Numbered from the stretch's first letter, positions 11,009 through 37,421 are shown. The stretch is 64,000 bases of DNA from Longimicrobiales bacterium (GCA_965116645.1 OZ220702.1:481929-545928), one strand, 5' to 3'. The notes: generated from the sequence alone by a model not told the origin. A program made the numbers and translations.

Positions 11009-11063
11009 CAGCGACCCGCCCGCTCCCGCATTTTGTTCGGCGACCGAACAAAGTCTGACCGGG
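11005..11063 (+). promoter_or_regulatory. promoter-operator module 1: TTGACA-N18-CA + 23-bp palindrome TTTTGTTCGG-CGA-CCGAACAAAG
   Basis: The -35-like TTGACA lies at 11005-11010 and the palindrome at 11031-11053, 33 nt upstream of ATG 11087. The module is near-identical to the one at 37485-37543 on the minus strand. Confidence 0.7.
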
Positions 11064-11086
11064 ACGCCTCGGGAGGGGACACGAGC

Positions 11087-22500: not shown

Positions 22501-22541
22501 TGCTCCAGGTCGGTCGGGTCCCGGTATGCCCTTGGCGGAAG

Positions 22542-22868
22542 CTACTTGAATAGCTCCGCGTGAGTTCCGGCACGTACGAAGTTGATCGAACCGCCGGGTT
22601 TCGGTGAATCATCGACCTGGTAGATCAGAAGGAAGTCCCCGCCGACATGGCATTCCCGGTGATTCGCCCACGCGCCCTTCAGCGCGTGGTCCCTCCGTTC
22701 GGGACCGAGCGGAGCCTCGTTGGCGATGAGGTGGAGCATGATCGCCTTGAGCCGATTCATGTCGTATCGACCCGAACGCGAAAGGCGTTCCCAGTCCTTG
22801 AGGAAGCCCCGAGTGAAGTCCACGCGCCGCGGCGGGCGTGCCCTCTTACTGGTCGCGGGCTTCTTCAA
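22542..22868 (-). CDS. yafQ: YafQ-family (RelE/ParE superfamily) mRNA interferase toxin
   Basis: FTRGFLKDWERLSRSGRYDMNRLKAIMLHLIANEAPLGPERRDHALKGAWANHRECHVGGDFLLIY is the YafQ signature. Confidence 0.8.
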   Translation of the reverse strand: MKKPATSKRARPPRRVDFTRGFLKDWERLSRSGRYDMNRLKAIMLHLIANEAPLGPERRDHALKGAWANHRECHVGGDFLLIYQVDDSPKPGGSINFVRAGTHAELFK

Positions 22869-23127
22869 GCTCCGCGAACATCTCGTCAGCGTTGGCGAAT
22901 CGGGCCGTCCCCCGTCTCATCATCTCCTCCGACTCGGCCATCGCCTGTCGGGTCCGGGCGTTCGGCACCTTGAGTTCCAGGGGGAAAGCCTGATCGACCG
23001 CGATTCGGTGGAAGAACAGCCGCACAGCCTCCGAGGCCGTCAACCCCATCGCCGCGAGCGCCGCCATCGCCTTCCGCTTCATCTCCGTGTCCATGCGGAC
23101 GTGGAGCATCGAACTGTGTGTCTTCAT
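22846..23127 (-). CDS. dinJ: DinJ/RelB-family antitoxin
   Basis: SMLHVRMDTEMKRKAMAALAAMGLTASEAVRLFFHRIAVDQAFPLELKVPN is the DinJ RHH signature. It lies immediately upstream of yafQ. Start taken at the internal ATG 23127. Confidence 0.8.
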   Translation of the reverse strand: MKTHSSMLHVRMDTEMKRKAMAALAAMGLTASEAVRLFFHRIAVDQAFPLELKVPNARTRQAMAESEEMMRRGTARFANADEMFAELEEARDQ

Positions 23128-23164
23128 CGGAAGACCTCCTGTGTCGCAATTGCGATATAAGGTG

Positions 23165-24481
23165 TCATTCCGGCCTGCCACGGTCAACCCGGACGCAGGA
23201 GTCGCAGGCGCGCCCGAAACGGACTTTCTCGTTCGCCTTCCTGCAATGGCCGCAACCGTGCCGGCCGAAGAACCACAGGGCCGGGTCCAGGGCCGCGCAT
23301 GTGCCCTCGATTCCGGCCGGTCCTGCGATATCCGCCTCCGATACGCCATTCGTCCAGGTCTCCTGGATGATGGGCTTGGCCTTCGCGAGCGTGCGCCCCC
23401 GCGTCGCGGTCACGCCCAGATTCTCGGTAGCCCTGCGCACATGAACATCGACCGCGACCGGAATGATTTCGATGCGATCAATCACCGCCCGACCCGGATT
23501 GGCCATCATCCGGACCCACATCGGTCCGATCTTCGGGCCGCGCAGCATCGGAAAGCGGGCGCGCCCGTTGTCGTCGGGGGACTTGAGATCGCTGAGCAGC
23601 TCCCGGGCTTCGCCGCTGCCGTGGTCGATCACGCGGCTCACGGGAGACTTGTGGCCGGAGGACAGGCTCCTTGCGATCCGGTGCCACGCATCCGAGTCGG
23701 GACCGTGCCTCTGGCTGACACGCGCGGCGTTCAACACCCCGGCCAGCGCGCCGACCTCAAGCCCCGCCACATGATGCGGATCGAAGCTCTCGGGTGATCT
23801 CTCGAAGAGGCGTCCCCCCGCGTTCCAGAGCTGGGTGGCGTTCCGCGCCCGGTCCATCGCGGCAATGAAGGTGAGGAAGAGGCGGACGGCGCGGTCGGAA
23901 GCCCTAGGGGAGCGGGCTTGCTTTGTGGTGCGAACGCTGTGCGAGAGGGTCGAATCGTTTTCGGCGTCGAGCACCGCTCGGGAGCTCCGCAGCTGACGTA
24001 CGACCGCGACCTCCGGCATGTAGTCGTGCCAGGGTTGGCCCGGAGCCATGTTGCGCGAGGCCAGGTCGAGGCTACCTCCGTAGAAGTCGTCCGCGATCAG
24101 CTTCGCGAGTCTGGCGGCATGGGAGCGAGCGGGGGAGCGGGGTTGATCCGCCTTTCCGTGGACGTGCAACCTCTCCCGATACCAGGCCTGCTGGCTTCCG
24201 ATTCCCGCGATGCCGGCGAGTGGCCGGTGAACCGCGGCCCCGGCATCGCGCAACCCTTCTTCCAGCCCATGGTCGATGTAGGTCGCGCCGGCGTGGATCT
24301 CGATCAGCCTGCCACGCATCGACGGCACCCGACGCTTCAATTGAGCAAGTACGCGGGCCGACCAGGCGCGCCGGGCCCTGGTCTGGAGATCCGTCAGCGC
24401 GAGTTCGTAGGGATCGATGCGCTGGTCGGGGTAGTAGGGCCGTCCCGCCCAACAGGACGATGGCTGCGAACCAGTTGACAA
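23165..24481 (-). CDS. DUF6884-like region fused to an HhH-GPD-like domain with a C-terminal Cys cluster; start unresolved
   Basis: YYPDQRIDPYELALTDL...RGRLIEIHAGATYIDHGLEEGL recalls DUF6884. FPMLRGPKIGPMWVRMM plus CAALDPALWFFGRHGCGHC...C..C recalls EndoIII-like glycosylases. There is no ATG/GTG between the upstream stop and TTG 24481. This is part of the artefactual 873-aa ORF. Confidence 0.35.
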   Translation of the reverse strand: MSTGSQPSSCWAGRPYYPDQRIDPYELALTDLQTRARRAWSARVLAQLKRRVPSMRGRLIEIHAGATYIDHGLEEGLRDAGAAVHRPLAGIAGIGSQQAWYRERLHVHGKADQPRSPARSHAARLAKLIADDFYGGSLDLASRNMAPGQPWHDYMPEVAVVRQLRSSRAVLDAENDSTLSHSVRTTKQARSPRASDRAVRLFLTFIAAMDRARNATQLWNAGGRLFERSPESFDPHHVAGLEVGALAGVLNAARVSQRHGPDSDAWHRIARSLSSGHKSPVSRVIDHGSGEARELLSDLKSPDDNGRARFPMLRGPKIGPMWVRMMANPGRAVIDRIEIIPVAVDVHVRRATENLGVTATRGRTLAKAKPIIQETWTNGVSEADIAGPAGIEGTCAALDPALWFFGRHGCGHCRKANEKVRFGRACDSCVRVDRGRPE

Positions 24482-24522
24482 GCGTACCGCACTGACGCCG
24501 CCGCCGAAGCCCCCACCCCCCC

Positions 24523-25176
24523 TCAACCCATTCCGTCCAGCACCTCCAGCAATCCCTCGGGCTCCGGCCGTGCCGTATAGTCCACGTCGACCCCCCCCCA
24601 CGCCACGGTCCCGTCCTGCCCGACCACGTACGTCGCCGGAATGGGCAGTTCCCACGTCGTATCGCCATTGAACCGGGCGAGGTCGATCCGCAGGTGATCC
24701 CGATAGATGTCCTGCAGCGCATCGGGCATCCGGAAGACCAGCCCGTACGAGCGTGCGACCCCGTTGCCGCTGTCCATGAGGACGTCGAACCCGATCCCGT
24801 CTTCCCGCGCCCACGCAGCCGCGAAGTCGTGCAGCTGAGGCGACAGGGTCAGCACGGTTGCGCCGCGCGCCGTGAAATCGGGCAGAAGTGACTGGAGAGC
24901 AGCCTGCTCCGCGCGGCAGTAGGGTCACCAGCGGCCGCGAAAGAAGCTGACAACCACAGGGCCTCGCCGCAGGGCCCGCGCGAGCCGGATCGTGTCGTGA
25001 CTCAGATTGGGCCGGGCGAAGAAGGGGGCCCCGTCGCCGGCCTGCACAACGCCGTCGAGGATTCCCGACGCCTTCAGGTCGGCGGTTCCGCGTACGAGTG
25101 TTCTTGTGATGGCAGGGTCGCGCCTGGCTGCTCCGGCTTCCCTGATCCGCTTCAGAGTCTGTGCGAGTGTGGGCAT
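24523..25176 (-). CDS. peroxiredoxin-like (AhpC/TSA, PRX_like2-type) thiol oxidoreductase with in-frame TGA at the first redox position (candidate selenocysteine; alternatively a nonsense pseudogene)
   Basis: ORFs 24925..25404 and 24523..24855 are in the same frame, separated only by TGA 24925-24927. The joined reading is VVVSFFRGRW-[TGA]-PYCRAEQAALQSLLPDFTARGATVLTLSPQ, so the TGA replaces the first Cys of WCPYC. Confidence 0.6.
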
Positions 25177-25323
25177 GGTGAGCGTGCGGAAAACGGGTGA
25201 TCTGAGTCGGTTGCAAGGGGGATACGTTCCCGGACGATGAGAGACGACGCAACCCCACCTTGACAGTGGGTCCGCCCATATCAGGTTGGATGTGTAGCGG
25301 ATCGCCAACCATGGAGGTGCCGA

Positions 25324-25521
25324 ATGAAGTACCGCGTGGCGCTTGAGGAGTCTGACGAGGGCTATTGCGTCTGGGTCCCTGGTCTGCCGGGGTGCGTGTC
25401 GCAAGGGGATACGGAGGAGGAAGCTCTGGAGAACATCGCGGCCGCGCTCCGGGAATACCTGGAGGTGGCGGTGGAGAACGCTGCGGGCACCGTGCTTCGA
25501 GAAATCGAGGTCGCCGTATAG
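25324..25521 (+). CDS. hicB: HicB-family antitoxin (UPF0150), no adjacent HicA
   Basis: MKYRVALEESDEGYCVWVPGLPGCVSQGDTEEEALENIAAALREYLE is the canonical HicB/UPF0150 fold signature. Confidence 0.8.
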   Translation: MKYRVALEESDEGYCVWVPGLPGCVSQGDTEEEALENIAAALREYLEVAVENAAGTVLREIEVAV

Positions 25522-25547
25522 GCTGTGCCGAGGATAGCTGTGGTCCC

Positions 25548-25799
25548 ATGCGAGAAATCACTGCCAAGGAAGCCAAGAACCGGTTCGGCCAGCTCCTCCG
25601 GTCCGCCCAGCAGGGACCCGTGCGCGTCACCCGGAACGGGACGCCGGTGGGCGTGATGCTGTCGGTGGAGCAGTTCGAACGCCTGCGCGGAACCGCGTGG
25701 GACCGGTTGGCCGCGGCGATGGACGCCATGAGCCGGGAGGCAGCCGCCAAAGGCCTGACGCCTGCGGCGTTGGAGTCCCTGTTCACCGAAGAGAGCTGA
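25548..25799 (+). CDS. Phd/YefM-family antitoxin
   Basis: MREITAKEAKNRFGQLLRSAQQGPVRVTRNGTPVGVMLSVEQFERL is the Phd/YefM N-terminal signature. Confidence 0.8.
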   Translation: MREITAKEAKNRFGQLLRSAQQGPVRVTRNGTPVGVMLSVEQFERLRGTAWDRLAAAMDAMSREAAAKGLTPAALESLFTEES

Positions 25800-25800
25800 C

Positions 25801-25884
25801 AGGGTCGTACTTGGCACCAGCGTTCTGATCGACGCCTTGCCTCATCCAGAGGGAACCGCTCCGCTCAAACGGATCGCACAGTAA
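25801..25884 (+). pseudogene. remnant of a PIN (VapC-type) toxin gene
   Basis: The frame reads RVVLGTSVLIDALPHPEGTAPLKRIAQ*. This is the PIN N-terminal strand with the catalytic Asp replaced (LDTS to LGTS), no start codon, and a stop after 27 codons. Confidence 0.55.
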
Positions 25885-26010
25885 TGTAGGCTTTACCAAA
25901 TGTAAAGAGAAGGCGACATCATCAGAAGGCGACATCATCGAGCCTGGATCCTCTCTCTGGCACCCTTGAACGCAGACACGCTCTGCCTCGGGGGAATCCG
26001 CTCGGCCCGG

Positions 26011-26475
26011 TCACCCGGGGCCAGGATTGATCGCGGAGTCGATCCGCTTGGCTTTCCACTTGCGTGTCTGCCCAGGCTGAACCACCGCCTCGAATAGCGC
26101 TTCGATTCCCTCCTCGGGTTCATCCATCCGATCCATCGCCTTGGGAGGGTCGATTCGGACCCCGGTCGTGAGGATCTCGGAGACAGCCTTCCAGAAACGG
26201 TCCGTTGTCGGTTCCGCAGGCTCCGGCTCGTAGGGAACCTTCCGTGCCTTGGCCCAACGCCGGATCTGATCTCTCACAATGCGCATGAGCCTCCGGCTCG
26301 TGGGATCGACACCACGCACCTCTTCATCCTGTGCCAGCCACCGCCATCCGTACCACGGGTTGCTCGTCTGCCATGCGACGACACCCACGGGGACGGTGCG
26401 GTCGCTATGGTCGTCCAGACTGACCCGGATCACGCAATACCCTTGGCCAATCTGCCAATCCGATCGTGAGTACAT
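26011..26475 (-). CDS. hypothetical protein, DUF3037-like
   Basis: GYCVIRVSLDDHSDRTVPVGVVAW... resembles the DUF3037 N-terminus. Start taken at ATG 26475, because the upstream in-frame codons are the duplicated higB remnant. Confidence 0.4.
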   Translation of the reverse strand: MYSRSDWQIGQGYCVIRVSLDDHSDRTVPVGVVAWQTSNPWYGWRWLAQDEEVRGVDPTSRRLMRIVRDQIRRWAKARKVPYEPEPAEPTTDRFWKAVSEILTTGVRIDPPKAMDRMDEPEEGIEALFEAVVQPGQTRKWKAKRIDSAINPGPG

Positions 26476-26545
26476 GCTGCGAAAGGTGACGAGCCTCGCG
26501 GGACGACGCCATGGTGGGACGGAGCACGGACTTGGCACGCTGACG

Positions 26546-26653
26546 TAGTCCACGTCGACGCCGTCGCCGTCCACGTTGTGTGGCGAACGGTGCCTGAAAC
26601 GCAGAAGCCCCGAGGACGAAGACCGCCTCGGGGCTCCTACCTCAGCGTCTTGC
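26546..26653. repeat. 108-bp direct repeat, copy A (higB 3' remnant + hairpin + duplicated transporter 3' end)
   Basis: My manual alignment with 27904-28011 gives 9 mismatches in 108 positions. The right-hand ~50 bp differ at a single loop position. Confidence 0.85.
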
Positions 26654-26756
26654 TGCGCCCGAAGGCGTGTGCAGTAGAGGACGACCTGAGGAATTACACT
26701 TGAACTATCGTCCTTTCCTATCCGAAACGCAACTCTCAGTCTCTCGCGGAGCCGCT

Positions 26757-27470
26757 ATGCTGTCCATCGGAAGCCTTCGAAGCGCTCTTTCGGCGGAGCG
26801 GCTAGGCGCCTACGCCCTGCCCACCGACACCGACGAGGTCGACAGCGTGGCTAGGTACCTGTGGAATCTGGCGCTGTGCAGCGCTCTCCAACCGGCCCTT
26901 CACACCCTTGAGGTCACCGTCCGGAACCACCTCTTCAAGACCTCGAGAAGGATCGTAGATGAGACCACGCTGAGTTTCGACAAGGTTCCATGTTGGCTCG
27001 ATGCTCGACCCTCGCTCCTCGTTGATCGCGAGCGACAGAACGTCGAGCAGGCGAAAGCCACGCTCAAGATGCGGGGAAGTCCGATGACTGAGGGACGGCT
27101 GGTCTCGGTCTTGGGCTTTGGTTTCTGGGTGAGTCTGTGTAAGAGGCCATATGAGCAGGGCCGCACCAGCGGACCGCGCCTCTGGCCTGATATGGCGAGA
27201 AGGGGATTCCCGCATCTACCCAAGGCCAAGCGCACACGCAGCCAGCTATTCCACTCCTTGGATCGGCTCCGAGACCTCCGTAACCGCATTTCTCACCATG
27301 AGGCCGTGTGGGACCGGAAGCTCAACCGAAGCCATCAGGAGATCCTCGAGACCGTAGCCTGGATCAACCTGGACCTGGCGGCGACGCTGAGGGCACACTC
27401 GCCGCTGCCAGCGGTACTCTACAAGGGAGTGACCGGCTTCCGCGCTCAAGCCGAGGCCATTATCAAGTGA
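26757..27470 (+). CDS. Abi_2-family (AbiD/AbiF-like) abortive-infection protein
   Basis: LSAERLGAYAL...ARYLWNLALCSALQPALHTLEVTVRNHLF...LGFGFWVSL...LRDLRNRISHHEAVW is the Abi_2 (PF07751-type) pattern. ATG 26757 is preferred over the upstream GTG 26667. Confidence 0.75.
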   Translation: MLSIGSLRSALSAERLGAYALPTDTDEVDSVARYLWNLALCSALQPALHTLEVTVRNHLFKTSRRIVDETTLSFDKVPCWLDARPSLLVDRERQNVEQAKATLKMRGSPMTEGRLVSVLGFGFWVSLCKRPYEQGRTSGPRLWPDMARRGFPHLPKAKRTRSQLFHSLDRLRDLRNRISHHEAVWDRKLNRSHQEILETVAWINLDLAATLRAHSPLPAVLYKGVTGFRAQAEAIIK

Positions 27471-27584
27471 TGTCGGCGCTGAACACGTGAATCCATCGAA
27501 CGACGACGCCCTGGACATAGCCCTTGCCAAACTGCGGTCCGGCGGTCTCGCGATCCCTCACGCGAATCTTCGGCCGAACCCCCC

Positions 27585-27872
27585 TCACCCCCTCGCGAAC
27601 CGCTCAACTGCGATTCCCGCGGCCCGAGTGCGTGCCTGCCAGAGATCGTAAGCCATCTGCATCCCCAGCCACGTCTCGGGGGTCGAGCCGAAGGCCTTCG
27701 ACAGCCGGATCGCCATCTCCACCGAGACCCCCGCGCGCCCGTTCAGCAATTCCGAAAGCGCCTGACGCGCGACGCCCAATCCCTCGGCAGCCCGAGTCAC
27801 CGTAAGACCCAGCGGTTCCAGGCATTGCCGCCGAACGATGCCGCCCGGGTGCGGTGGATCGTGCATGGCCAT
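27585..27872 (-). CDS. higA: HigA-family (XRE HTH) antitoxin
   Basis: HPGGIVRRQCLEPLGLTVTRAAEGLGVARQALSELLNGRAGVSVEMAIRLSKAFGSTPETWLGMQMAYDLW is the canonical HigA/VapI sequence. AGGAGAG SD lies upstream. Confidence 0.85.
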   Translation of the reverse strand: MAMHDPPHPGGIVRRQCLEPLGLTVTRAAEGLGVARQALSELLNGRAGVSVEMAIRLSKAFGSTPETWLGMQMAYDLWQARTRAAGIAVERFARG

Positions 27873-27887
27873 GGCTGGTCCTCTCCT

Positions 27888-27959
27888 TCAGTGATAGTCC
27901 AGATAGTCCACGTCGACGGCATCGCCGTCCAGGTCGTGTGGGAAACGGTTCCTGAAACT
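27888..27959 (-). pseudogene. higB: 3' remnant of a HigB (killer protein) toxin gene
   Basis: The frame ends SFRNRFPHDLDGDAVDVDYLDYH*, the characteristic HigB C-terminus (..GDA.D....DYH), directly upstream of higA. Everything further upstream is replaced by the transporter terminator. Confidence 0.6.
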
Positions 27960-28011
27960 CAGAAGCCCCGAGGACGAAGAACGCCTCGGGGCTCCTACCT
28001 CAGCGTCTTGC
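27904..28011. repeat. 108-bp direct repeat, copy B
   Basis: Partner of 26546-26653. It contains the real stop and last codons of the symporter gene, the terminator hairpin and the higB remnant. Confidence 0.85.
27964..27993 (-). terminator. hairpin terminator of the glycan operon
   Basis: On the minus strand AGCCCCGAGG-N10-CCTCGGGGCT (10-bp GC-rich stem) starts 2 nt after the symporter stop and is followed by TCTGAGTTTC. Confidence 0.55.
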
Positions 28012-30265
28012 CCCGACCCCGCCGCCGCTCCAGCTCCGCCCTCACCTTGCCCGCGCTCTCCTCCGTGATCGGGTACCGGTACACGGCGTAGATCGCGATC
28101 CCCGACGCGATCAGCGGCACGAAGGCGTCGTAGAAGCGCAGCCAGAAGATCGTCCCTTCGGGCTGATTCGCGCCCAGGGAGGCGTCGAGTCCGGTCGAGT
28201 AGAGCAGGAAGCCGCCGAGCACGATCGCGCCGCTCTGGCCGAGTTTCACCATCCACCAGAACACCGATCCGAACATGCCTTCGCGCCGCTCACCGGTGGT
28301 TATCTCGTCCAGGTCCACCACATCGGCGATCATCGAGCCCATCAGGGTAAAGAGGCCGCCGAGCCCGAAGGCCAGGAACGGGGCCGGCAGCAGCGCCAGC
28401 AGGGGCTGGTCGGGCGTGTAACAGAACCACTTGAGCGCGTATCCGAGCATCGAGATGCCCGTCGACACGAAAAACGCGTTCTTCTTGCCGATTCTGGTGC
28501 CGAGCCAGGTGACGAGCGCGATCACCAGGAACCCCGTGACGGTGCCGAGCGTGCCGACCACGCCCGCGAGCGCCGCCCCCTCCGGGACGTTGCCGCCTGT
28601 GATGTAAAAGGCGAACACCCAGAACTGGAATTGGGAGATCATGATGAAGCTGTTGAACATCAGGAAGGTTGCGATGCAGAGCATCAGGAAGGGGCCGGTC
28701 CTGAGCGTCTGCCACAGGCCGCGCAGAAACTCCAGGGCGCTCTGCTCAATGCCGTGGGCTATCGTACGCTCATCCGTGCCTCGCGACCCGGAAGCCCCAC
28801 CTTCCGTACGCCCATCCGCACGTCGTCTCCCGGGGCCACGCCCGCCCGCGCGTTGATCCGCGCCGCCTGCCCGGGAGCCTCGGCGGTCCCGGCCCGCTTC
28901 GGCCGCGGCGCTTCCCCCGATCACGCGCTCCCGCAGAAAAATCGCCGGCAGCACGCCCAGCACGATCGTCGCCACGCAGATCGCGAGTGCGACGAAACGG
29001 GCGCCGTCCATCTGGTTCCGGAACCACACCGGGTTGGTCGCGATGACCAGGAACCAGGGCCCGATGACGAACACTGTGTTGGACACGAAGTTCTGCACGC
29101 CCATCAGGCGGGTGCGCTCGTTGTAGTCGGGGGTGAGTTCGTAGCCGAGCGCCACCCACGGCGTCGCGAAGATCGTGTAGGCCAGGAAGAACACCAGCGA
29201 CCCGATGAGGAAGTACCAGAAGTAGGCCCGCTGGCTCCAGCCCTCTCCCGTTTCGTCCGGAGTCCAGATGTCGATGTGGAGGTGCGTCATCGCACTGGCG
29301 TCGACCGGGTTGCTGCCGAAGTCGATTGTCGCGACGCGAAGGTTGGTGTAGTGCTTGACTTCGTCTCCGCCGGCCCGGGCATCGGCTACTTCGGCAACGT
29401 CCGGCCCGGCGGACCACGATCCGACCGGCACATCGTCGTAAGCGGCGCTGAAGAGGGAGATCACGTCCTCGGGCGGGACCCCGGGGGCCGGTGCTCCGGT
29501 GACAGGGACGGTGGCGCCCTCGATGTCCTGGGCGGGAGGCACCGCCGTCTGGAGACCGGCTGCGGCCGGGCCGACGCCCTCGACGCCCTGGTTGGGAGAT
29601 GCCGACGCCGGGAGTGCGCCCACCGCCGCGCCGCCCAGGCGGTAGAAATACACGTTGTCGACATAGACCTCGGTCAGGTCGCCCGAGATCACCATCTGCG
29701 CCAGGTGTTCGCGCGTGGCGAGCCCGTCGAAGTCGCTCAGCGGCACGTCCACGCTCACCCATGCGCCCGTCACCAGCGTGGGGGGCAGGACGGCGACCTC
29801 GTCCTCGACATCGTCGACCACCTCCACCGTGAAGATCTCCCTCAGCGCATCGCCTGCGGCCCGCAGCCAGCCCACGGGTTCGTCCGTCTCGCCGCTGTAG
29901 ACCCCGTCGGCGCCGTGGTCGACCAGCTTGAGCCGCAGCTGTGTCGGCGCCGGCATCTGCCACAGCAGCAGGAAGATGACCCCCGCCGAAATCGCGCCCG
30001 CGAAGAGGAACGGGCGCCGCCGCCCCCAGCGCGACTTCGTCTTGTCCGACACGAAGCCGACGAGCGGATCGGTGAGTGCGTCGAAGAAGCGCGGCAGGCC
30101 GCCGAGCAGGCCGACGGCCCGGAAGTCGACGCCGAGCGCCAGGGTCAGTACGGCCATCATGTTGCCGATGCCCTGGCCCAGCAGATTGTTCGTGAACCCG
30201 CCGATCCCGTAGATAATCTTGTGTGGGAACGATACCCGGTCTTCGGGAGCGGTCCGCTTGCTCAC
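27995..30265 (-). CDS. GPH-family (MelB/YicJ-like) glycoside:cation symporter with a ~240-aa CBM-like insertion in loop 3-4 and an Arg/Gly-rich central loop
   Basis: YGIGGFTNNLL, FDALTDPLVGFVSDKTKSRWGRRRPF (the GPH loop 2-3 motif), ALGYELTPDYNERTRL, and multiple hydrophobic helices. GTG start lies 4 nt after the GH16 stop. Confidence 0.85.
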   Translation of the reverse strand: MSKRTAPEDRVSFPHKIIYGIGGFTNNLLGQGIGNMMAVLTLALGVDFRAVGLLGGLPRFFDALTDPLVGFVSDKTKSRWGRRRPFLFAGAISAGVIFLLLWQMPAPTQLRLKLVDHGADGVYSGETDEPVGWLRAAGDALREIFTVEVVDDVEDEVAVLPPTLVTGAWVSVDVPLSDFDGLATREHLAQMVISGDLTEVYVDNVYFYRLGGAAVGALPASASPNQGVEGVGPAAAGLQTAVPPAQDIEGATVPVTGAPAPGVPPEDVISLFSAAYDDVPVGSWSAGPDVAEVADARAGGDEVKHYTNLRVATIDFGSNPVDASAMTHLHIDIWTPDETGEGWSQRAYFWYFLIGSLVFFLAYTIFATPWVALGYELTPDYNERTRLMGVQNFVSNTVFVIGPWFLVIATNPVWFRNQMDGARFVALAICVATIVLGVLPAIFLRERVIGGSAAAEAGRDRRGSRAGGADQRAGGRGPGRRRADGRTEGGASGSRGTDERTIAHGIEQSALEFLRGLWQTLRTGPFLMLCIATFLMFNSFIMISQFQFWVFAFYITGGNVPEGAALAGVVGTLGTVTGFLVIALVTWLGTRIGKKNAFFVSTGISMLGYALKWFCYTPDQPLLALLPAPFLAFGLGGLFTLMGSMIADVVDLDEITTGERREGMFGSVFWWMVKLGQSGAIVLGGFLLYSTGLDASLGANQPEGTIFWLRFYDAFVPLIASGIAIYAVYRYPITEESAGKVRAELERRRGRGKTLR
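29237..29950 (-). other. inserted domain: circularly permuted copy of the lipoprotein glycan-binding-like repeat
   Basis: aa ~106-343 read LRLKLVDHGADG...TGAWVSVDVPLSDFDGLATREHLAQMVISGDLTEVYVDNVYFYR, then a P/A/G linker, then EDVISLFSAAYDDVPVGSW...KHYTNLRVATIDFGSNPVDASAMTHLHIDIWTPDE. Confidence 0.8.
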
Positions 30266-30269
30266 CGGG

Positions 30270-31151
30270 TCACTCGGCGCGGTAGACGCGCACCCAGTCG
30301 ACGAGCATGGTCTGTGGGAAGGTCGTGGACGCGTTCGGTGGTCCGACGAAGGTGCCGCCCACGGCGACGTTCAGGAGCAGGAAGAAGGGGTGGTCAAAGA
30401 CCCACCGGCCGGGCGGATCGTCCCGGTCCACGGCGTGGTAGCGCTCTCCGTCCATGAACCAGACGATGCGCTCCTCCGTCCATTCGATCGCGAACTCGTG
30501 GAATCCGGTGTCGAAACGGGCACCGGTGAGCGCGTAGCGTGCGCCGATTCCGCCGCCACCGGAATACCTGGGCCCGTGAACGGTTCCGTGTACGATCGTC
30601 GGCTCCTGGCCGCGGTACTCCATGATGTCGATCTCTCCGCAATCCGGCCAACCCACGGTGCCGAAGTCGCTGCCGAGCATCCAGAAGGCGGGCCAGATGC
30701 CCTGCCCGCTGGGCAGCCGGATGCGCGCTTCGAAGCGGCCATACGCCTGCTCGAAAAGCCCCTCGGTCTTGATGCGACCCGACGTGTAGGCGCTCCCCTG
30801 GTAGGATTCGCGGCGAGCTGTGATCGCCAGGTTGCCGTTGCCGTCGAGTGACACGTTTTCGGGACGGTCGGTGTCGTACTCCAGCTGCCTGTTGCCCCAG
30901 TCGGTGCCGATGTCGAAGGTCCAGTTGGCGGGATTGGGAAGCTGTCCGGCCGGGCCGTCGAATTCGTCGCTCCAGACCAATGTCCAGTCGGGCTCGGGCT
31001 CGGCGCCGAAGCTGTCGCATGCCAGGGACAGGAGGATCAGCGGAAGCATCCCGGGGACGAGCTCTCGCGAGCACCGAGCCCTTCGAATGCCGCGGCGCCC
31101 CTGTCCACGGGCAGTCAGGGCGAGGATAAGCCGGCGGCACACGCCGGTCAT
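30270..31151 (-). CDS. GH16 endo-beta-1,3-glucanase (laminarinase), lipoprotein
   Basis: WSDEFDG, GRFEARIRLPSGQGIWPAFWMLG and the catalytic GEIDIMEYRG (E-x-D-x-x-E) motif. Lipobox LLSLAC. ATGA overlap with the ROK stop (alternative start at 31049). Confidence 0.9.
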   Translation of the reverse strand: MTGVCRRLILALTARGQGRRGIRRARCSRELVPGMLPLILLSLACDSFGAEPEPDWTLVWSDEFDGPAGQLPNPANWTFDIGTDWGNRQLEYDTDRPENVSLDGNGNLAITARRESYQGSAYTSGRIKTEGLFEQAYGRFEARIRLPSGQGIWPAFWMLGSDFGTVGWPDCGEIDIMEYRGQEPTIVHGTVHGPRYSGGGGIGARYALTGARFDTGFHEFAIEWTEERIVWFMDGERYHAVDRDDPPGRWVFDHPFFLLLNVAVGGTFVGPPNASTTFPQTMLVDWVRVYRAE

Positions 31152-32365
31152 GCCGCAATCACACCGGGAAACAGCCGGGGATTGGCCAGGGCAGCGACCA
31201 GGACGTGCGTGGCGGCGCCCAGAGCTACCGCGCGCTCGCCCAGGTCGCTGGTGCGGATGTCAGAAGCGGCTGCGGAGGCCACGAGCGTGCGGGTGGCGAC
31301 GGCTTCGCGCAGCGGGTTGACCAGCCGGTCGCCCGCCCGTGCCAGGCTCCCTCCAAGGATCACCGATCCGGGGTTCAGGAGGTTCAGCACCCCGGCGACC
31401 ACGATTCCCAGACGTACCGCGGCCTCGTTGACGACCTCCAGCGCGAGCGGGTCGTCGGCGAGGGCGGCGTCCTCGATCGCGCGGATTTCGGGCTCGGTTC
31501 CGGCCAGGGCGCTGTCGGGGAAGCGGCTCATGAGGCTCCTGGCCCGGTCGACGAGCTGGCGCGTGCCCACGAAGGTCGCCAGGCAGCCGCGGTTCCCGCA
31601 CACGCACTTGGGCCCGCTCGGATCGATCGCCACGTGACCGATTTCGCCCGCGACCCCCGTGGCCCCACGGTAGATCTCCCCGCCGATCATGATCCCCGCC
31701 CCCACCCCGGTGGCGACCTTCAGGTACACGAAATCGTCGATTCCCACCGCCTCCCCCCACCACCGCTCCGCCACCGCCCCCAGATTGGCGTCGTTGTCCA
31801 CGAAGACGGGTATCCCGAATACGCTGTTGAGACGGTCCAGCACGCCGTGCCCACGCCATGCGGGGAGAACCCGTTCCAGCACCCGGTCCGGCGACCCGGG
31901 ATCGACCGGGCTGGGCACGGCCACGCCGATTCCCATGAGCCGCGACCGGTCCCCGTTCCACTCGGCCAGACAAACCTCGCCCAGTCCGGTGATCAGCGCC
32001 TCGGCGCCCTTGGGATCACTGCGCACGGGGTGGGCGCGTTCCCGCCAGGCCAGCGTCCGCCCCCGCAGGTCCGTGAGGATCACCGAAATGTGCGTGGCTC
32101 CCACGTCCACCCCCAGGATCACGCCCGCATCGTCCTGGAACCCCACCAGAATGGGACGCCGGCCTCCACGGCTCTCGCCGGCGCCCACCTCCGCCACCAG
32201 CCCAGTGCCGAGGAGCCGCCCCACCACCTCCGAGATGGTGGAGCGGGACCTCCCGGTGTTGCGCGCGATCTCGGCGCGCGAAACCTCCCGTCGGCGCCAG
32301 ACGAGGTTGAGGACCGTCCTGGCCAAGTCGTCGTCCGGCGGCGCAACCGCCTCGCGCGGCATCAT
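31148..32365 (-). CDS. ROK-family transcriptional repressor (wHTH + sugar-kinase-like domain)
   Basis: wHTH VSRAEIARNTGRSRSTISEVVGRLLGTGLV. ROK core GVDVGATHISV, and the Zn motif GHVAIDPSGPKCVCGNRGCLA. ATG 32365 overlaps the upstream stop (ATGA). Confidence 0.9.
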   Translation of the reverse strand: MMPREAVAPPDDDLARTVLNLVWRRREVSRAEIARNTGRSRSTISEVVGRLLGTGLVAEVGAGESRGGRRPILVGFQDDAGVILGVDVGATHISVILTDLRGRTLAWRERAHPVRSDPKGAEALITGLGEVCLAEWNGDRSRLMGIGVAVPSPVDPGSPDRVLERVLPAWRGHGVLDRLNSVFGIPVFVDNDANLGAVAERWWGEAVGIDDFVYLKVATGVGAGIMIGGEIYRGATGVAGEIGHVAIDPSGPKCVCGNRGCLATFVGTRQLVDRARSLMSRFPDSALAGTEPEIRAIEDAALADDPLALEVVNEAAVRLGIVVAGVLNLLNPGSVILGGSLARAGDRLVNPLREAVATRTLVASAAASDIRTSDLGERAVALGAATHVLVAALANPRLFPGVIAA

Positions 32366-35300
32366 TTGCGCAGGTAAACGTTGTCGACGAACACGGTATT
32401 GGGGTCGCCCGAGAGGATCAGTTGCGCGAGATGTCCCCGCGCCGTGAGTGCCGTGAAGTCCGATAGCGGGATATCGTAGCTTAGCCACTGGCCGGTCGCG
32501 AGCGCCGGGTCCGAACTTGCGGTCAGCGAGATCTCATGTTCGGTGTCGTCGCCTCCGCCGAACGCGCCATCGGCACCGAAGTCGACCAGCTTGACCTTGA
32601 AGGCGGCGGGGGCGGCAGTGGGGTCGGGGGTCCAGATGTCGATGCGGAAATGGGTCATCCCGGTGGCGTCGACGGTATTCGAGGTGAACTCGATACCCGC
32701 GAAGACGAGGTTCGTGTACTTCCTGGTGGCGTTTCCGGCGATCTGCACATCCTCGACATCGGCCTGGTCCCACGAGGCGGACCAGGTGTCGACCGTCACG
32801 TCGGTGTAGGCGTCGCTGAAGAAGGAGATTACGCTGTCCGCGTGGTGCGACGGGGTGGGCGCCGCCTCGGAAGGCTCGCTCGGAGACACCGCATAGAAGT
32901 AGACATTGTCCAGGAACACCGTGTTCGGGTCGCCGGAGATGATCAGCTGGGCGAGGTGTTCGCGGGCAGCCAGGTTGGTCATGTCGGCGAACGCCAGGTC
33001 GTAGCTGACCCACTGGCCGGTGGCCAGCGCGGGATCGGAGGCGGCGGTAAGCGTGACCTCGTGCTCCGTGTCGTCGCCTCCGGCGAACGCGCCGTCGGCC
33101 CCGAAATCGACCAGCTTGACCTTGAACGCCGCGTTCACCGTCTCGTCGGGCGTCCAGATGTCCATGTGGAAGTGGGTCATCCCGGCGGCGTCGATGGGCG
33201 CGGACGTGAACTCGATGCCCGCGAAGACGAGATTCGTGTACTTCTTCACGGTGTCAGCCTCGATCACCACGTCCTCGACGTCGGCCTGGTCCCACGACGC
33301 GGACCAGGTGTCCACCGCGGCGTCGGTGTACGGGCCGCTGAAGAGCGAGATCACGGCGTCCGCCGCGTGCGTCGGGGTCGGAGCGGGCGCGCTCGGTGCT
33401 GCCGGCGCCGCCCCCTTCCGGAAGTACACGTTGTCGACGTAGAGCGTATTCGGGTCGCCTGAAATGATCAGCTGCGCCAGGTGTTCCGTTTCGGCGAGGC
33501 CCGTGAAGTCCGCGAGCGCCAGGTCCAGTTGCACCCATTGCTCCGACACCAGGCCGTCGGCGGCCGTTATGGTGACTTCGTGCTCGGTGTCGTCGCCGCC
33601 CCCGTCCCAGACGCCGTTTGCGCCGAAGTCCACCAGCTTGACCTTGAACGCCGCGTTCACCGTCTCGTCCGGCGTCCAGATGTCCATGCGGAAGTGCGTC
33701 ATGTCGGCTGCGTTGACGGTCGCCGAGGTGAATTCGATCCCGGCGAACACCAGGCCGGTGTACTTCTTGGTGGCGTTGCCCGCGACCTCCACGTCCTCGA
33801 CGGTCGCCACATCCCAGTCCGCCGACCAGGTGTCCACCGTCACGTCGTCGTATGCGTCGCTGTAGAGCGAAATCACGTCGTCGGCCGCGTCGCCGGGCGC
33901 CGGGGCCGCCTCGGTCGGCACGGGCTCCGGAGGCGGCGCCTCGCCGCGCCGGAAGTAGACGTTGTCCACGTAGACCGTGTTCGGGTCGCCCGAGATGATC
34001 AGCTGCGCCAGGTGTTCCCTCGCCGCGAGCCCGGGGAAGTCCGTGAAGGGCAGGTCCAGCTGCACCCACTCTTCCGTCGAGAGCCCGTCGTCCGTGTTGA
34101 GGACAACCTCGTGCTCACTGTCGTCGCCGCCCCCGAACGTGCCGTCCGCGCCGAAGTCCACGAGCTTCACTCTGAACGCTGCGGCCGCCGTCTCGTCCGG
34201 CGTCCAGATGTCCATCCGGAAGTGGGTCGCGTGCGTCGCGTCCACGGTCTGCGAGGTGAACTCGACGCCTGCAAAGGTCAGGTTCGTGTATCTCTTTGCC
34301 GCGTTCCCCGCGATCTCCACGTCCGCGACGTCGGCCTGATCCCAATCGGCGGACCAGGTGTCCACCGTCACGTCTTCGTAGGCGTCGCTGAAGAGCGAGG
34401 TGACGTCCTCGGCCGCGTGGGTCGGCGCCGGCGGCCCCGAGGTGGGCGCGGCCTGCAGCATGACCGTGACCGCCGCGCCCGCGCTCGCGCTTCCCGATGT
34501 CGCGGTGACCGTCGTCGCCCCGTCCGCGACCGCGGTGACCAGCCCGTTCGCATCCACCGTCGCAACCGCCTCGTCCGCCGAGGCCCAGCTCACCGTCGCC
34601 CCGTCGATCACGTTCCCGTTCGCGTCGGCCACCTCAGCCGCGAGCTGCGCCGTCTCGCCGGCTACGATGAGGTGCACCGAGTCGGGCGCGACCGTGACAG
34701 CCGCGGCTTCCTGCTCGACCGTGACGGTTCCGGTTCCGCTCAGGCTGCCCGACGTCGCGGTGATCGTCGCCGTGCCGTTGGCGACCGCGGTGACGAGCCC
34801 GTCGGCGTCGACCGTGGCCACCGCCTCGTCCCCGGAGGACCAGCTCACCGAGGCGCCGGAGATCGCGTTCCCGTTCGCATCCTGCACCTCGGCCGTGAAC
34901 TGGGCCGTCTCTCCGACGGCAGAGAGAGTCACCGACCCGGGTGTGACCGACACCGCCGTCGCAGCCTGCGCCACGCTGACGGACGCCGTACCGCTCGCTG
35001 TGCCCGAGGTCGCCGTAATCGTCGCCGTGCCGTTGCCCGCCGCGGTGACGAGCCCCGTTGTGTTCACCGACGCGACCGCGTTGTCGCTCGAGCTCCAGGA
35101 TACCGACGCACCGGCCATCACCTCCCCGTTCTGGTCGCGGACCGTGGCGCCGAGCAAGACGGTCTCGCCCAGCGATGAAAGCGAAGCCGTGGCGGGGGCA
35201 ATCGTGACCGTCGTGGCCACGGGCGGCTCGACGGGATCGTCGCCGCAGGCCAGCATTCCGCACACAAGGAGCGCGGCGAGCGCGCCGACCCTGCCCCGTG

Positions 35301-35373
35301 GGTATGAGAGGCGGCGGGGGGAAGATCCGGGCGAGAGCCGGCCCGGGACTGAGCGGTGGCTGAGCGACGTCAT
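32362..35373 (-). CDS. cell-envelope lipoprotein: 3 x Big_2 Ig-like domains + 4 x ~165-aa CBM-like repeats (putative glycan-binding protein)
   Basis: Lipobox GMLAC. Three units of the type VTIAPATASLSSLGETVLLGATVRDQNGEV...VSWSSSDNAVASV...GNGTATITAT. Four units of the type DVISLFSDAYxDVTVDTWSAxWDQADVEDV..KKYTNLVFAGIEFTS..MTHFRMDIWTPDET..FKVKLVDFGADG..EHLAQLIISGDPNTVYVDNVYF. Confidence 0.85.
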   Translation of the reverse strand: MTSLSHRSVPGRLSPGSSPRRLSYPRGRVGALAALLVCGMLACGDDPVEPPVATTVTIAPATASLSSLGETVLLGATVRDQNGEVMAGASVSWSSSDNAVASVNTTGLVTAAGNGTATITATSGTASGTASVSVAQAATAVSVTPGSVTLSAVGETAQFTAEVQDANGNAISGASVSWSSGDEAVATVDADGLVTAVANGTATITATSGSLSGTGTVTVEQEAAAVTVAPDSVHLIVAGETAQLAAEVADANGNVIDGATVSWASADEAVATVDANGLVTAVADGATTVTATSGSASAGAAVTVMLQAAPTSGPPAPTHAAEDVTSLFSDAYEDVTVDTWSADWDQADVADVEIAGNAAKRYTNLTFAGVEFTSQTVDATHATHFRMDIWTPDETAAAAFRVKLVDFGADGTFGGGDDSEHEVVLNTDDGLSTEEWVQLDLPFTDFPGLAAREHLAQLIISGDPNTVYVDNVYFRRGEAPPPEPVPTEAAPAPGDAADDVISLYSDAYDDVTVDTWSADWDVATVEDVEVAGNATKKYTGLVFAGIEFTSATVNAADMTHFRMDIWTPDETVNAAFKVKLVDFGANGVWDGGGDDTEHEVTITAADGLVSEQWVQLDLALADFTGLAETEHLAQLIISGDPNTLYVDNVYFRKGAAPAAPSAPAPTPTHAADAVISLFSGPYTDAAVDTWSASWDQADVEDVVIEADTVKKYTNLVFAGIEFTSAPIDAAGMTHFHMDIWTPDETVNAAFKVKLVDFGADGAFAGGDDTEHEVTLTAASDPALATGQWVSYDLAFADMTNLAAREHLAQLIISGDPNTVFLDNVYFYAVSPSEPSEAAPTPSHHADSVISFFSDAYTDVTVDTWSASWDQADVEDVQIAGNATRKYTNLVFAGIEFTSNTVDATGMTHFRIDIWTPDPTAAPAAFKVKLVDFGADGAFGGGDDTEHEISLTASSDPALATGQWLSYDIPLSDFTALTARGHLAQLILSGDPNTVFVDNVYLRK
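32365..34422 (-). repeat. four tandem ~500-bp coding repeats (CBM-like domain units)
   Basis: The protein-level repeats are clearly visible. Each unit is separated by a Pro/Ala-rich linker. Confidence 0.85.
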
Positions 35374-37421
35374 GGGTTGTCTCCGATTGGATTGCTACTG
35401 TTGAATTGCGCGGGCGACATTTGTGCAGGCCCTGCTGCTGGCCGCCGGAAATAGATGTTGTCGACGTAAACGGTGTTCAGATCCCCCGAGATGATCAGCT
35501 GGGCGAGGTGTTCCCTCCCCGTGAGGTTGGCGAAATCCGCGAGCGGGAGATTCAACGACACCCACGCTCCGGTCGCCAGCCCTCCGGCGGCCGTGATCGT
35601 GACCTCGTGTTCGCTGTCGTCCCCCCCGCCGAACCCTCCATCCGCACCGAAGTCCACCAGCTTCACCTTGAAGCCCGCGGCCGCAGTCTCGTCCGGAGTC
35701 CAGATGTCCATCCGGAAGTGCGTCATGCCTCTGACGTTCAGGGTCTGCGAAGTGAACTCGATTCCCGCAAACGACAGGTTCGTGTACTTCTTCGCTCCGT
35801 TCCCCCCGATTGCCACGTCCTCCACGTCGGCCTGGTCCCACTCCGCCGACCAGGTGTCGACCGTCGCGTCGTCATAAGCGTCGCTGAAGAGCGAGATCAC
35901 GTTCGCCGCCGGGTCCTGCGGGGTAGGCGCGGGGTCCGGTGGACCGGTCGGATCGACGGGGGTCTCGCCCCGAAAGAAGTAGATGTTGTCCAGGTAGACG
36001 GTCCGGCTCGACCCCGAGATGATCAGCTGGGCGAGATGGCCGCGGCCCGCCAGCCCGCTGAAGGCCGAGAGCGGAATGTCCAGGACGTTCCACGTTCCGG
36101 GCGCGATCGGCGTCGGCGACACCGGAGTGAATGTGACTTCGTGTTCGCTGTCGTCCCCCCCGCCGAAGACGCCATTCGCGCCGAAGTCCACAAGCTTGAT
36201 GCGGAAGGTCGTCGCGTCGTTGGTCCAGAGGTCGACGTGGAGGTGCGTCATGGAAGTGGCGTCGATCAGCGACGAGGTGAACTCGACGCCCGCAAAGGAC
36301 AGATTGGTGTACTTCTTGACCGGATTCCCGGCGACCACCACGTCGTCCACGTCGGCCTGGTCCCACTCGGCCGACCAGGTGTCGACGTTCACGTCCTCGT
36401 AGGCGTTGCTGAAGAGGGAGATGACATCTTCGGCTGGCACCATCGGCACCGGGGGCGCGTCTTCGGGCGGCGTCTCGACGTTGACGGTGAGCGCTCCCGC
36501 GGCGGGGGTCGGTCCCAGCGTCGCCGTTATCGTGGCGGTGCCGGGGCGGACCAGCGTGATGGTGCCATCGGCTTCCACCGACGCGACGCCCGGGTCCGAA
36601 GAGGTGAAGGTGAAGTACGCGGATGCGGCGCCCACGGTCACGTCGGCCCCGTTGACGTCGAAGGTCACGCGCGTGCCGCCGACCGCCAGGGTGCCGCCCA
36701 CCTCGCTGCTGACCGTCCGTGTGTCGATCACCGGCTGCGGATTGATGATCGTGCCGAGGCGCTCGAACTGCACGTCGTCGAAGTAGAGCTCGTAGCCGAC
36801 CGGATACTCGGAAGCGTCCGCGACGAGGAAGAGGCCCGGCTCTTCGGTCAGCAGGGAGGGCAGCGGCAGGGGGACCGCGTACTTCGTCCAGCGAGTCGAG
36901 AGCGACAGGTTGTCGAGCGTGGCCGGGAAGCGGGAGGTGCCGGTGTTGTCGTCCCCGAAACCAACCCGGTCCAGCGTCGCGGCCGTGCTCGCGCGGGCCC
37001 AGAAGGTCAGGGCGTCAAACCCCGAGAGGTCGCGCGGCACGGTCGAGAAGAAGGCGCCTCCGGCGTAGCCGCCCGTCGGGTCGTTTGGTGCCGGAACGGT
37101 GAACTTCAACGCCGCGGTCCCGCGGTACACCAGGTCGCGCTCGATATCGAGGGCGTCGACCTTGGATCCCCCGAAGGCCCCGTAGTGGAGCCCCGGCGCG
37201 AAGTCGTCGTAGAAGACTCCCGGGTCGGGCGGGAAGGCCGCCGGGTCGAGTTCGGTCAGATCGCGTTCGCAGGCGGTGGCGAAGGCGAGCGGGAGGAGGG
37301 CGACGCTCCAGGCTCGGGAGCCGGGTCCCGATGGCCGGATCGGGCGTTCCCGCAGCCGGAATGGACCGCGCCGCGACCGGGGTCCGCTACCCGATGGCCG
37401 GCGCGCGGTGCTCGCAGTCAT
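35370..37421 (-). CDS. cell-envelope lipoprotein: N-terminal beta-sandwich-like domain + Big_2 + 2 x CBM-like repeats
   Basis: Lipobox AFATAC and SD AGAGG before the ATG. Big_2-like FTFTSSDPGVASVEADGTITLVRPGTATITAT. Two copies of the same repeat as in the downstream gene (EDVISLFSNAYEDVNVDTWSAEWDQADV... and ANVISLFSDAYDDATVDTWSAEWDQADV...). Confidence 0.85.
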   Translation of the reverse strand: MTASTARRPSGSGPRSRRGPFRLRERPIRPSGPGSRAWSVALLPLAFATACERDLTELDPAAFPPDPGVFYDDFAPGLHYGAFGGSKVDALDIERDLVYRGTAALKFTVPAPNDPTGGYAGGAFFSTVPRDLSGFDALTFWARASTAATLDRVGFGDDNTGTSRFPATLDNLSLSTRWTKYAVPLPLPSLLTEEPGLFLVADASEYPVGYELYFDDVQFERLGTIINPQPVIDTRTVSSEVGGTLAVGGTRVTFDVNGADVTVGAASAYFTFTSSDPGVASVEADGTITLVRPGTATITATLGPTPAAGALTVNVETPPEDAPPVPMVPAEDVISLFSNAYEDVNVDTWSAEWDQADVDDVVVAGNPVKKYTNLSFAGVEFTSSLIDATSMTHLHVDLWTNDATTFRIKLVDFGANGVFGGGDDSEHEVTFTPVSPTPIAPGTWNVLDIPLSAFSGLAGRGHLAQLIISGSSRTVYLDNIYFFRGETPVDPTGPPDPAPTPQDPAANVISLFSDAYDDATVDTWSAEWDQADVEDVAIGGNGAKKYTNLSFAGIEFTSQTLNVRGMTHFRMDIWTPDETAAAGFKVKLVDFGADGGFGGGDDSEHEVTITAAGGLATGAWVSLNLPLADFANLTGREHLAQLIISGDLNTVYVDNIYFRRPAAGPAQMSPAQFNSSNPIGDNP

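Follow-up and report, generated by a model that had tools for sequence, protein, structure and literature searches.

The GPH/MFS_2 cation:sugar symporter encoded on the minus strand at 27995..30265 of a 64,000-nucleotide stretch of a Longimicrobiales bacterium (GCA_965116645.1 OZ220702.1:481929-545928; hereafter the window) carries, in the loop between its third and fourth transmembrane helices (TM3 and TM4), a domain, predicted to be folded, that is a true circular permutation of a repeat resembling a carbohydrate-binding module (CBM). The same repeat is found in two putative lipoproteins, L4 and L2, encoded in the same operon. What is new is the combination, a circularly permuted CBM-type domain built into a GPH symporter, the GPH class and the CBM fold themselves being already known. 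On balance, and with modest confidence, we regard the protein as the cation-coupled GPH/MFS symporter of a laminarin operon, in which the permuted insert, derived from a shifted copy of a repeat array, would act as a capture module for beta-1,3-gluco-oligosaccharides. A first-pass annotation of the window had proposed the open reading frame (ORF), its GPH identity and an insert between TM3 and TM4, all of which are confirmed by Pfam, Foldseek, AlphaFold2 and an alignment of orthologues.

By profile, fold and motifs the 756-aa product is a 12-helix member of the GPH/MFS_2 family. Pfam MFS_2 (PF13347) matches it in three separate stretches (E 1.2e-54, 186 bits vs. a cut-off of 27). Its score against TIGR00792 (gph) is 145.7 bits, below the cut-off of 231.35, because the insert and a long central loop split the match, so that the shortfall reflects the architecture and not a foreign family. 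The AlphaFold2 model of the full-length protein (113 sequences) has a predicted TM-score (pTM) of 0.81 and is matched by Foldseek to MFSD2A (8d2t, TMt 0.82, E 2e-12) and MelB (7l16 and 8t60, TMt 0.72-0.78), where TMt denotes the target-normalised and TMq, used below, the query-normalised TM-score. The N-terminus and TM1-TM3 (aa 1-105; 29951..30265, minus strand; predicted helices 13-44, 48-75 and 84-101) contain the loop 2-3 motif and the DALTD motif. FDALTDPLVG aligns with WDAITDPLVG of MFSD2A, and the acidic cation-site motif of TM2, equivalent to D55/D59 of MelB, is thus present; D62, D66 and the RWGRRRP motif of loop 2-3 are invariant in the 113 sequences. The coupling ion may be Na+ or H+. 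TM4-TM6 (aa 341-449; 28919..29245, minus strand; helices 345-377, 381-409 and 418-443) include ALGYELTPDYNERTRL, which lies in an invariant block among the 113 insert-bearing sequences, and TM7-TM12 with the C-terminus (27995..28756, minus strand) were placed by Pfam, AlphaFold2 and the MFSD2A alignment. The cytoplasmic central loop 6-7 (aa 450-503; 28757..28918, minus strand) holds a Gly/Arg-rich, low-complexity expansion, rich in K+R, unconserved (column conservation 0.11) and predicted to be disordered, with a predicted local distance difference test score (pLDDT) below 50. Together with a longer linker in the insert, this expansion makes the protein one of the longest of its family, whose members typically have 685-700 aa.

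The insert comprises ~235 aa (aa 106-340, 29246..29950) and interrupts a loop that has 6-7 residues in insert-less orthologues. The insertion is clean in the ortholog alignment, which sets LLWQLPR/GQSExFYFW against LLWQMPA-[~235 aa]-GEGWSQRAYFW; the upper end agrees with the earlier coordinates (29237..29950, aa 106-343), and the lower boundary is moved to 29246. Its first part (aa 106-212; 29630..29950, minus strand) is the C-terminal half of the CBM-like repeat, with predicted strands 110-116, 153-159, 170-175, 188-195 and 199-208 equivalent to beta6-beta10 of the repeat. Within this half, inside the GADG...DDxEHE loop, lies a transporter-specific extra segment of 18-23 aa (aa 127-149; 29819..29887, minus strand), absent from the lipoprotein repeats, for which a helix at 133-145 is predicted at pLDDT ~47-56. 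A Pro/Ala/Gly linker follows (aa 213-254; 29504..29629, minus strand), with pLDDT below 50 over aa 213-242, and joins the old C- and N-termini. The second part (aa 255-340; 29246..29503, minus strand) is the N-terminal half of the repeat, made up of the lead-in and beta1-beta5 (strands 268-272, 292-298, 301-307, 311-315 and 328-334, pLDDT 92-95). The lead-in motif AP.PT..A.DVIS, found before each lipoprotein repeat, is kept in the insert.

Three lines of evidence establish the permutation. First, transporter residues 101-345, compared by BLASTP with L4 and L2, align in single collinear stretches that span repeat boundaries at 39-42% identity (E 1e-42 to 2e-45), for example to L4 396-571, 577-745 and 751-919 and to L2 398-579. 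Since the alignments cross the boundaries, the insert starts with the C-terminal half of repeat n and continues through the linker into the N-terminal half of repeat n+1, and the linker is collinear with the inter-repeat linkers, as had been suggested when the old termini were said to be joined by a tandem-type linker. Second, a repeat-family hidden Markov model (HMM) was built from 60 copies, namely the six copies in the window plus homologues from Gemmatimonadota, Bacteroidota and Cloacimonadota. It matches the transporter three times, with profile positions 76-101 at aa 104-129, 96-158 at aa 148-209 (E 3.5e-22) and 2-80 at aa 261-339 (E 1.1e-28). Each HMM position is matched a single time, and the breakpoint falls near position 78, between DIWTPDET and FKVKLVD, which is where the first-pass annotation had placed it; when the insert is de-permuted it is matched in the native profile order, 2-101 and then 96-158, split only at the extra segment. 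Third, AlphaFold2 modelling of the transporter and of a single repeat recovered the ten strands in permuted order, corresponding one-to-one to those of the single repeat at pLDDT ~80-96, and both halves have high pLDDT in the full-length model. That the two halves pack as one domain is predicted from these confidence values and from the completeness of the permutation.

The first-pass annotation had raised the concern that the junctions might be chimeric, the insert being a product of repeat-driven assembly error in the window, and related repeats do lie nearby. Homologues and genome loci leave this explanation a negligible chance, as the same architecture occurs in dozens of separate assemblies, complete 3-5 Mb chromosomes from long reads among them. 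It was also rejected on divergence, the insert being only ~40% identical at the protein level to the neighbouring repeats, too distant for mis-assembly.

All 120 top homologues in the database, which come from many independent assemblies of Longimicrobiales or unclassified Gemmatimonadota and have 54-100% identity and 680-760 aa, carry the insert at the same position. A genome scan with one genome per species returned 79 loci, 34 of which have insert-bearing ORFs of 684-739 aa; all 34 bear the label Longimicrobiales, Ca. Palauibacter or unclassified Gemmatimonadota, and several lie on complete chromosomes of 3-5 Mb. The remaining loci have insert-less versions of 479-507 aa. In a tree based on 471 shared core columns all insert-bearing proteins group together and no insert-less one falls among them, indicating a single acquisition, and in an exhaustive search of 1.84 billion representative proteins the insert-bearing family falls in one 50% cluster (P0114). 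In the core, insert-less orthologues are 57-61% identical to the window protein, and their genes often follow the same arrangement (repeat lipoprotein(s), ROK, GH16, GPH) in other Gemmatimonadota and in metagenome-assembled genomes labelled Ignavibacteriales, Delongbacteria and Anaeromyxobacter; the linkage of repeat and GH16 is conserved in many loci. The occurrence of the same operon without the insert in other phyla implies that the operon is old and widespread and that the insertion is an innovation of this lineage. One insert-bearing transporter gene, at L010 9001-9300, has an early frameshift; it lies on a 45-kb contig closely resembling L002, and is either a pseudogene or the result of a sequencing error.

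The folded insert is under purifying selection. Among the 113 insert-bearing proteins, column conservation is 0.76-0.91 in the folded insert and 0.83-0.89 in the TM core, vs. 0.53 in the extra segment and 0.23 in the linker. Pairwise ratios of nonsynonymous to synonymous substitution rates (dN/dS, Nei-Gojobori, against seven relatives) are 0.15-0.30 for the folded insert, 0.05-0.28 for the core and mostly 0.3-0.6 for the aligned linker and central loop. These values speak to the notion that the insert is a functionless, tolerated passenger left by illegitimate recombination with the neighbouring repeat genes. Such an accident is made plausible by the presence of donor-type sequence 2-7 kb away in the same operon, but the domain is intact in all 34 loci except the one frameshifted copy and in the best 120 database proteins down to 54% identity, it is constrained while the linkers evolve freely, and it retains both fold-determining and exposed conserved residues. 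We therefore consider a passenger very improbable.

The simplest origin suggested by the sequences is an out-of-register copy of a repeat array. In an ancestor of the Longimicrobiales clade, a stretch of tandem CBM repeats that began halfway through one repeat and ended halfway through the next, thus taking in a C-terminal half, the linker and an N-terminal half, would have been copied in shifted register into periplasmic loop 3-4, the donor-type array 2-7 kb away in the same operon supplying the tandem intermediate. In the permutation-by-duplication model, a tandem duplication is followed by loss of the outer halves. The insert shares with this model its predicted intermediate, since it follows a tandem array, with its linker, across the junction of two repeats. 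It differs in that an out-of-register segment appears to have been copied into another gene, instead of the termini being eroded in place.

The insert is predicted to face the periplasm, as the first-pass annotation had assumed for loop 3-4, on the basis of the positive-inside charge pattern and of homology to MelB and MFSD2A. In these proteins the N-terminus and loop 2-3 are cytoplasmic and loop 3-4 lies outside. Basic residues of the transporter are concentrated at the N-terminus, in loop 2-3 (TKSRWGRR), in the central loop with its 16 K+R and at the C-terminus with 9; K+R number only 0-1 in the alternate loops, and the insert itself has 9 K+R vs. 38 D+E.

The repeat, ~160 aa long, is by structural modelling a type-B CBM beta-sandwich of an unannotated family. 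The AlphaFold2 model of L4 repeat 1, made from a 60-sequence alignment, has a pLDDT of 95.8 and ten beta-strands. Foldseek returned 72 PDB matches at E<=1e-3, and the 50 listed are mostly CBMs or CBM-bearing proteins. The best of them are CBM30 (1wmx, 2c24) and CBM11 (1v0a, and 6r3m with mixed-linkage beta-glucan), with probability 1.0, TMq 0.62-0.67 and 11-16% identity, followed by CBM8, CBM22, CBM16, CBM28 and CBM29; the earlier suggestion of a carbohydrate-binding-like domain thus holds for the fold. Pfam and NCBIfam gave no match on the repeat copies of the window, and Pfam CBM_11 matched weakly in 4 of the 60 family members (best 4e-5). The repeat is nevertheless widespread, and occurs in Bacteroidota and Cloacimonadota proteins with C-terminal sorting domains of the type IX secretion system (T9SS) (homologues P0121-P0240). 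Some homologues sit in proteins named GH16 by their sources (P0210, P0219).

The repeat family has 56 positions with at least 80% conservation, and at 43 of these the same residue is found in at least 80% of the inserts. The conserved residues of the repeat face, K45, Y47, E56, H69, D73, W75, K88 and F92, correspond in the transporter to K304, Y306, D315, H328, D332, W334, K113 and Y117, which are invariant or nearly so. The alternation of hydrophobic with conserved polar or aromatic residues in strands beta3-beta6 suggests that the conserved ones form an exposed face of the kind usual for type-B CBM clefts, and binding probably takes place there. In the lipoprotein repeats the loop VDTWSAxWD does not vary, but the inserts retain it less strictly (D23 to Q, W25 kept in 80%, W29 in 70%), and further departures from the family are E56 to D and F92 to Y. 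In the transporter subclade of the window itself the second Trp (W29) is replaced by Pro, and also by Arg or Thr, most other inserts keeping Trp; the equivalent loop in the window reads GSWSAGPDVAEV (~aa 284-290; 29400..29440, minus strand). Ligand specificity or affinity may have shifted in this subclade.

The transporter is the last of five tightly packed minus-strand genes (27995-37421) in the order L2, L4, ROK, GH16 and transporter, whose overlaps and 4-nt spacings indicate co-transcription. The GH16 gene (30270..31151, minus strand; Pfam GH16, E 2.9e-25), whose stop codon precedes the transporter start by 4 nt, encodes an endo-beta-1,3-glucanase (laminarinase) with a putative lipobox, LSLAC/D. 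Its closeness to solved enzymes (beta-1,3-glucanase 2hyk, 5e-78; laminarinase 3azx, 7e-72) identifies the locus as a utilisation operon for beta-1,3-glucan of the laminarin type. In its N-terminus, LLSLAC/DSF (31020..31060, minus strand), Asp occupies position +2 after the putative lipobox Cys. An Asp at this position is an inner-membrane retention signal in E. coli, and if the same rule applies here the laminarinase would be held on the same membrane as the transporter. The ROK-family regulator (31148..32488, minus strand; Pfam ROK, E 1.1e-58) has an N-terminal winged helix and a start probably downstream of 32488, and its gene is kept at the same position in related loci.

The two putative lipoproteins have four and two copies of the repeat, as counted earlier. 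L4 (1003 aa; 32362..35373, minus strand) has three Big_2 immunoglobulin (Ig)-like domains (Pfam Big_2, E 3e-33) and four CBM-like repeats, encoded on the minus strand at 33943..34413, 33412..33885, 32890..33363 and 32365..32841. L2 (683 aa; 35370..37421, minus strand) has an N-terminal domain of ~275 aa, one Ig-like domain and two CBM-like repeats (35967..36434 and 35439..35909, minus strand).

Read as a capture module, the permuted insert would work as follows. The two halves would reassemble into one complete, permuted beta-sandwich, tethered to the N-domain of the transporter, on its periplasmic face, through ~5 residues on one side and ~10 on the other. We infer that the domain binds beta-1,3-gluco-oligosaccharides released by the GH16 laminarinase, possibly from glycan held by the repeat proteins L2 and L4, and that it would concentrate them at, or hand them over to, the entrance of the transport path. 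With the new termini in the beta5-beta6 connection, the cleft would turn one of its ends to the membrane, a hypothetical orientation relative to the pore. The domain might thus serve as a built-in, low-cost counterpart of a substrate-binding protein for a secondary transporter.

Several points weigh against this reading. Searches of PDB sequences with one repeat, with the 60-sequence profile and with P0158 gave no meaningful match, and no characterised member can be linked by sequence; hence the repeat is not tied to a solved CBM by sequence, and ligand-contact residues are not transferable. The relaxed aromatic loop could mean that glycan binding is altered or lost. Type-B CBM clefts usually prefer chains longer than the di- and trisaccharides typical of GPH carriers. 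As to origin, the inserts, once de-permuted, are about as close to repeats from Ignavibacteriales/Bacteroidota as to those from their own clade (46-54% identity), and no donor is singled out.

Loop 3-4 also carries other inserts in related GPH transporters. P0247 (842 aa) has ~370 aa of WD40-like beta-propeller repeats (LTWGxDGTARLW) at this position, P0249 (840 aa) and P0250 (654 aa) have two copies and one copy, respectively, of an unknown ~185-aa domain, and P0370 has ~70 aa of low-complexity sequence. A GH16 gene lies directly upstream of the genes for P0247 and P0250, the latter being followed by a GH30 gene; the loci with GH16-linked GPH transporters bearing other inserts are L080 (3931-5895) and L081 (6245-8773). 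Profile-profile comparison revealed no detectable relation between the 185-aa domain and the CBM-like repeat (probability 0.3), and a homologue search with that domain found three partial MFS proteins only, one of them from Ca. Syntrophosphaera. By these sequences, loop 3-4 of GH16-linked GPH transporters appears to be a recurrent insertion socket. The variety of inserts makes it less likely that permutation is required for insertion, and more likely that a periplasmic domain at this place is useful. The first-pass annotation had held the permuted geometry to be needed for insertion into a loop, a claim that is weakened by the apparently non-permuted domains occupying the same loop.

The same observations bear on the idea that the permuted domain is a docking or scaffold module, recruiting GH16 and/or the repeat lipoproteins, or mediating oligomerisation, so that hydrolysis takes place beside the transporter. 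The relaxation of the lipoprotein-type aromatic loop, the transporter-specific segment at aa 127-149 and the +2 Asp of GH16 would fit such a role, as would a WD40-like beta-propeller, typically a protein-interaction fold, at the same site in other lineages. Beta-propellers also bind glycans, however, as in the hybrid two-component system (HTCS) and BguR sensors, and there is no evidence for any docking partner; moreover, the insert keeps 43 of the 56 positions conserved in the repeat family, itself of glycan-binding type, and exposed polar and aromatic ones are among them. Docking is the main alternative, albeit an unlikely one. We give still less weight to a regulatory or gating element, in which the domain would be a periplasmic sensor coupling oligosaccharide supply to conformation, either as an autoinhibitory lid or in the manner of a transceptor. 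The very short tethers to TM3 and TM4 would pass on movement, and the domain is conserved yet slightly less constrained than the core; against this, GPH transporters offer no precedent, the operon already has a cytoplasmic regulator of the ROK family, and nothing specific in the sequence points to gating.

A broader form of the capture reading is put forward tentatively, as something we would not yet favour. According to it, the insert would be a working substrate-delivering receptor in an MFS/GPH carrier and the first intrinsic CBM of an ion-coupled carrier. Loop 3-4 would be a repeatedly used socket for periplasmic capture domains, filled by the permuted CBM in Longimicrobiales, by a beta-propeller, and by one or two copies of the 185-aa domain in lineages including Cloacimonadota. 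The permutation would be a snapshot of permutation by duplication that orients the cleft toward the pore.

Further features were noted around the operon. Residues 50-325 of L2 (36450..37270, minus strand) match no Pfam family except for a short Big_2 stretch; this N-terminal region is conserved beside the repeats in most related repeat-lipoprotein loci of several phyla, and may be another glycan-binding domain. A promoter and terminator scan of the operon gave no more hits than shuffled sequence, and a tRNA scan found none. Directly downstream of the transporter, the region 22500..27990 has a lower G+C content (0.63 at 26-28 kb) and no ORF passing a filter for high G+C at third codon positions (GC3). 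It holds a DUF6884-matching stretch in the ORF 23165..25786 (minus strand), gave no match for the ORF 26667..27470 (plus strand), and may be foreign or degenerate DNA. Carbohydrate-related genes occur ~15-20 kb away, encoding a CBM9-like/DUF5916 protein (7475..9757, plus strand) and a GH2-TIM-barrel-like protein of 1094 aa (11033..14317, plus strand). The ten larger ORFs scanned with Pfam in the rest of the window included neither a TonB-dependent receptor nor a beta-glucosidase.

To our knowledge, secondary transporters are generally thought to work without binding proteins, and high-affinity capture is regarded as a hallmark of ABC, TRAP and TonB/SusCD systems. If the capture reading is true, a GPH symporter with an integral CBM would add a third way of gathering oligosaccharides from dilute supply, with a bearing on how marine and sponge-associated Gemmatimonadota turn over laminarin, among the largest marine carbon fluxes. 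The insert also provides a clear case from nature of a circular permutation arising out of an array of tandem repeats. MFS loop 3-4 would be a defined, tolerant insertion site usable for engineering transporters with tethered binding modules, and the unannotated CBM-like family, widespread in Gemmatimonadota, T9SS proteins of Bacteroidota and Cloacimonadota, merits biochemical characterisation. In the open-access literature we found no bacterial MFS/GPH transporter with an inserted CBM or other domain, in keeping with the earlier statement that the architecture was not known to have been described for this class. The terms 'CBM', 'fused' and 'extracellular domain' do not occur in a September 2026 review of bacterial glycoside transporters, and a paper on marine Gemmatimonadota reports GH16_3 laminarinases in a Longimicrobiales group, with no mention of this transporter.

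The putative lipoprotein L4 resembles Cf-SGBP of Christiangramia (C.) forsetii (Bacteroidota), a lipoprotein with 2 Ig-like domains and 4 CBMxx that binds laminarin (Zuhlke et al., bioRxiv 10.1101/2023.09.07.556657). Both have Ig-like domains and four tandem beta-sandwich CBM-type repeats and belong to a GH16 laminarin locus; the likeness is one of domain plan, the phylum is another, and the CBMs of Cf-SGBP are not part of a transporter. The nearest precedent within the MFS is found in mammalian PepT1/PepT2 (SLC15, MFS/POT), which have between TM9 and TM10 an extracellular domain of two Ig-like domains, proposed to bind trypsin (PMC4597091). They likewise have a folded domain of beta-sandwich type in an extracytoplasmic loop, but are eukaryotic and differ in the loop and the domain concerned, which is not permuted and whose proposed ligand is not the substrate. 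With CBM11 and CBM30, its best fold matches among the type-B modules, the repeat shares only 11-16% identity and has no Pfam match in the window, and the transporter copy is circularly permuted; CBM11 binds beta-1,3-1,4-glucans.

In the ABC importers OpuA and GlnPQ, Venus-flytrap substrate-binding domains are fused at the termini of primary transporters. The concept of a binding module tethered covalently to the translocator outside the membrane is shared with the symporter described here, which has instead a CBM-type beta-sandwich, and no Venus flytrap according to Foldseek, within a loop of a secondary transporter, so that the analogy is functional at most. Finally, the protein shares with the GPH symporters (TC 2.A.2; MelB and the related MFSD2A) the 12-TM MFS fold, the basic loop 2-3, the D-x-x-T/N-D motif in TM2 and the Pfam MFS_2 match; it differs from them in loop 3-4, which in MelB, MFSD2A and the insert-less orthologues has a few residues and here holds a folded domain of ~235 aa.

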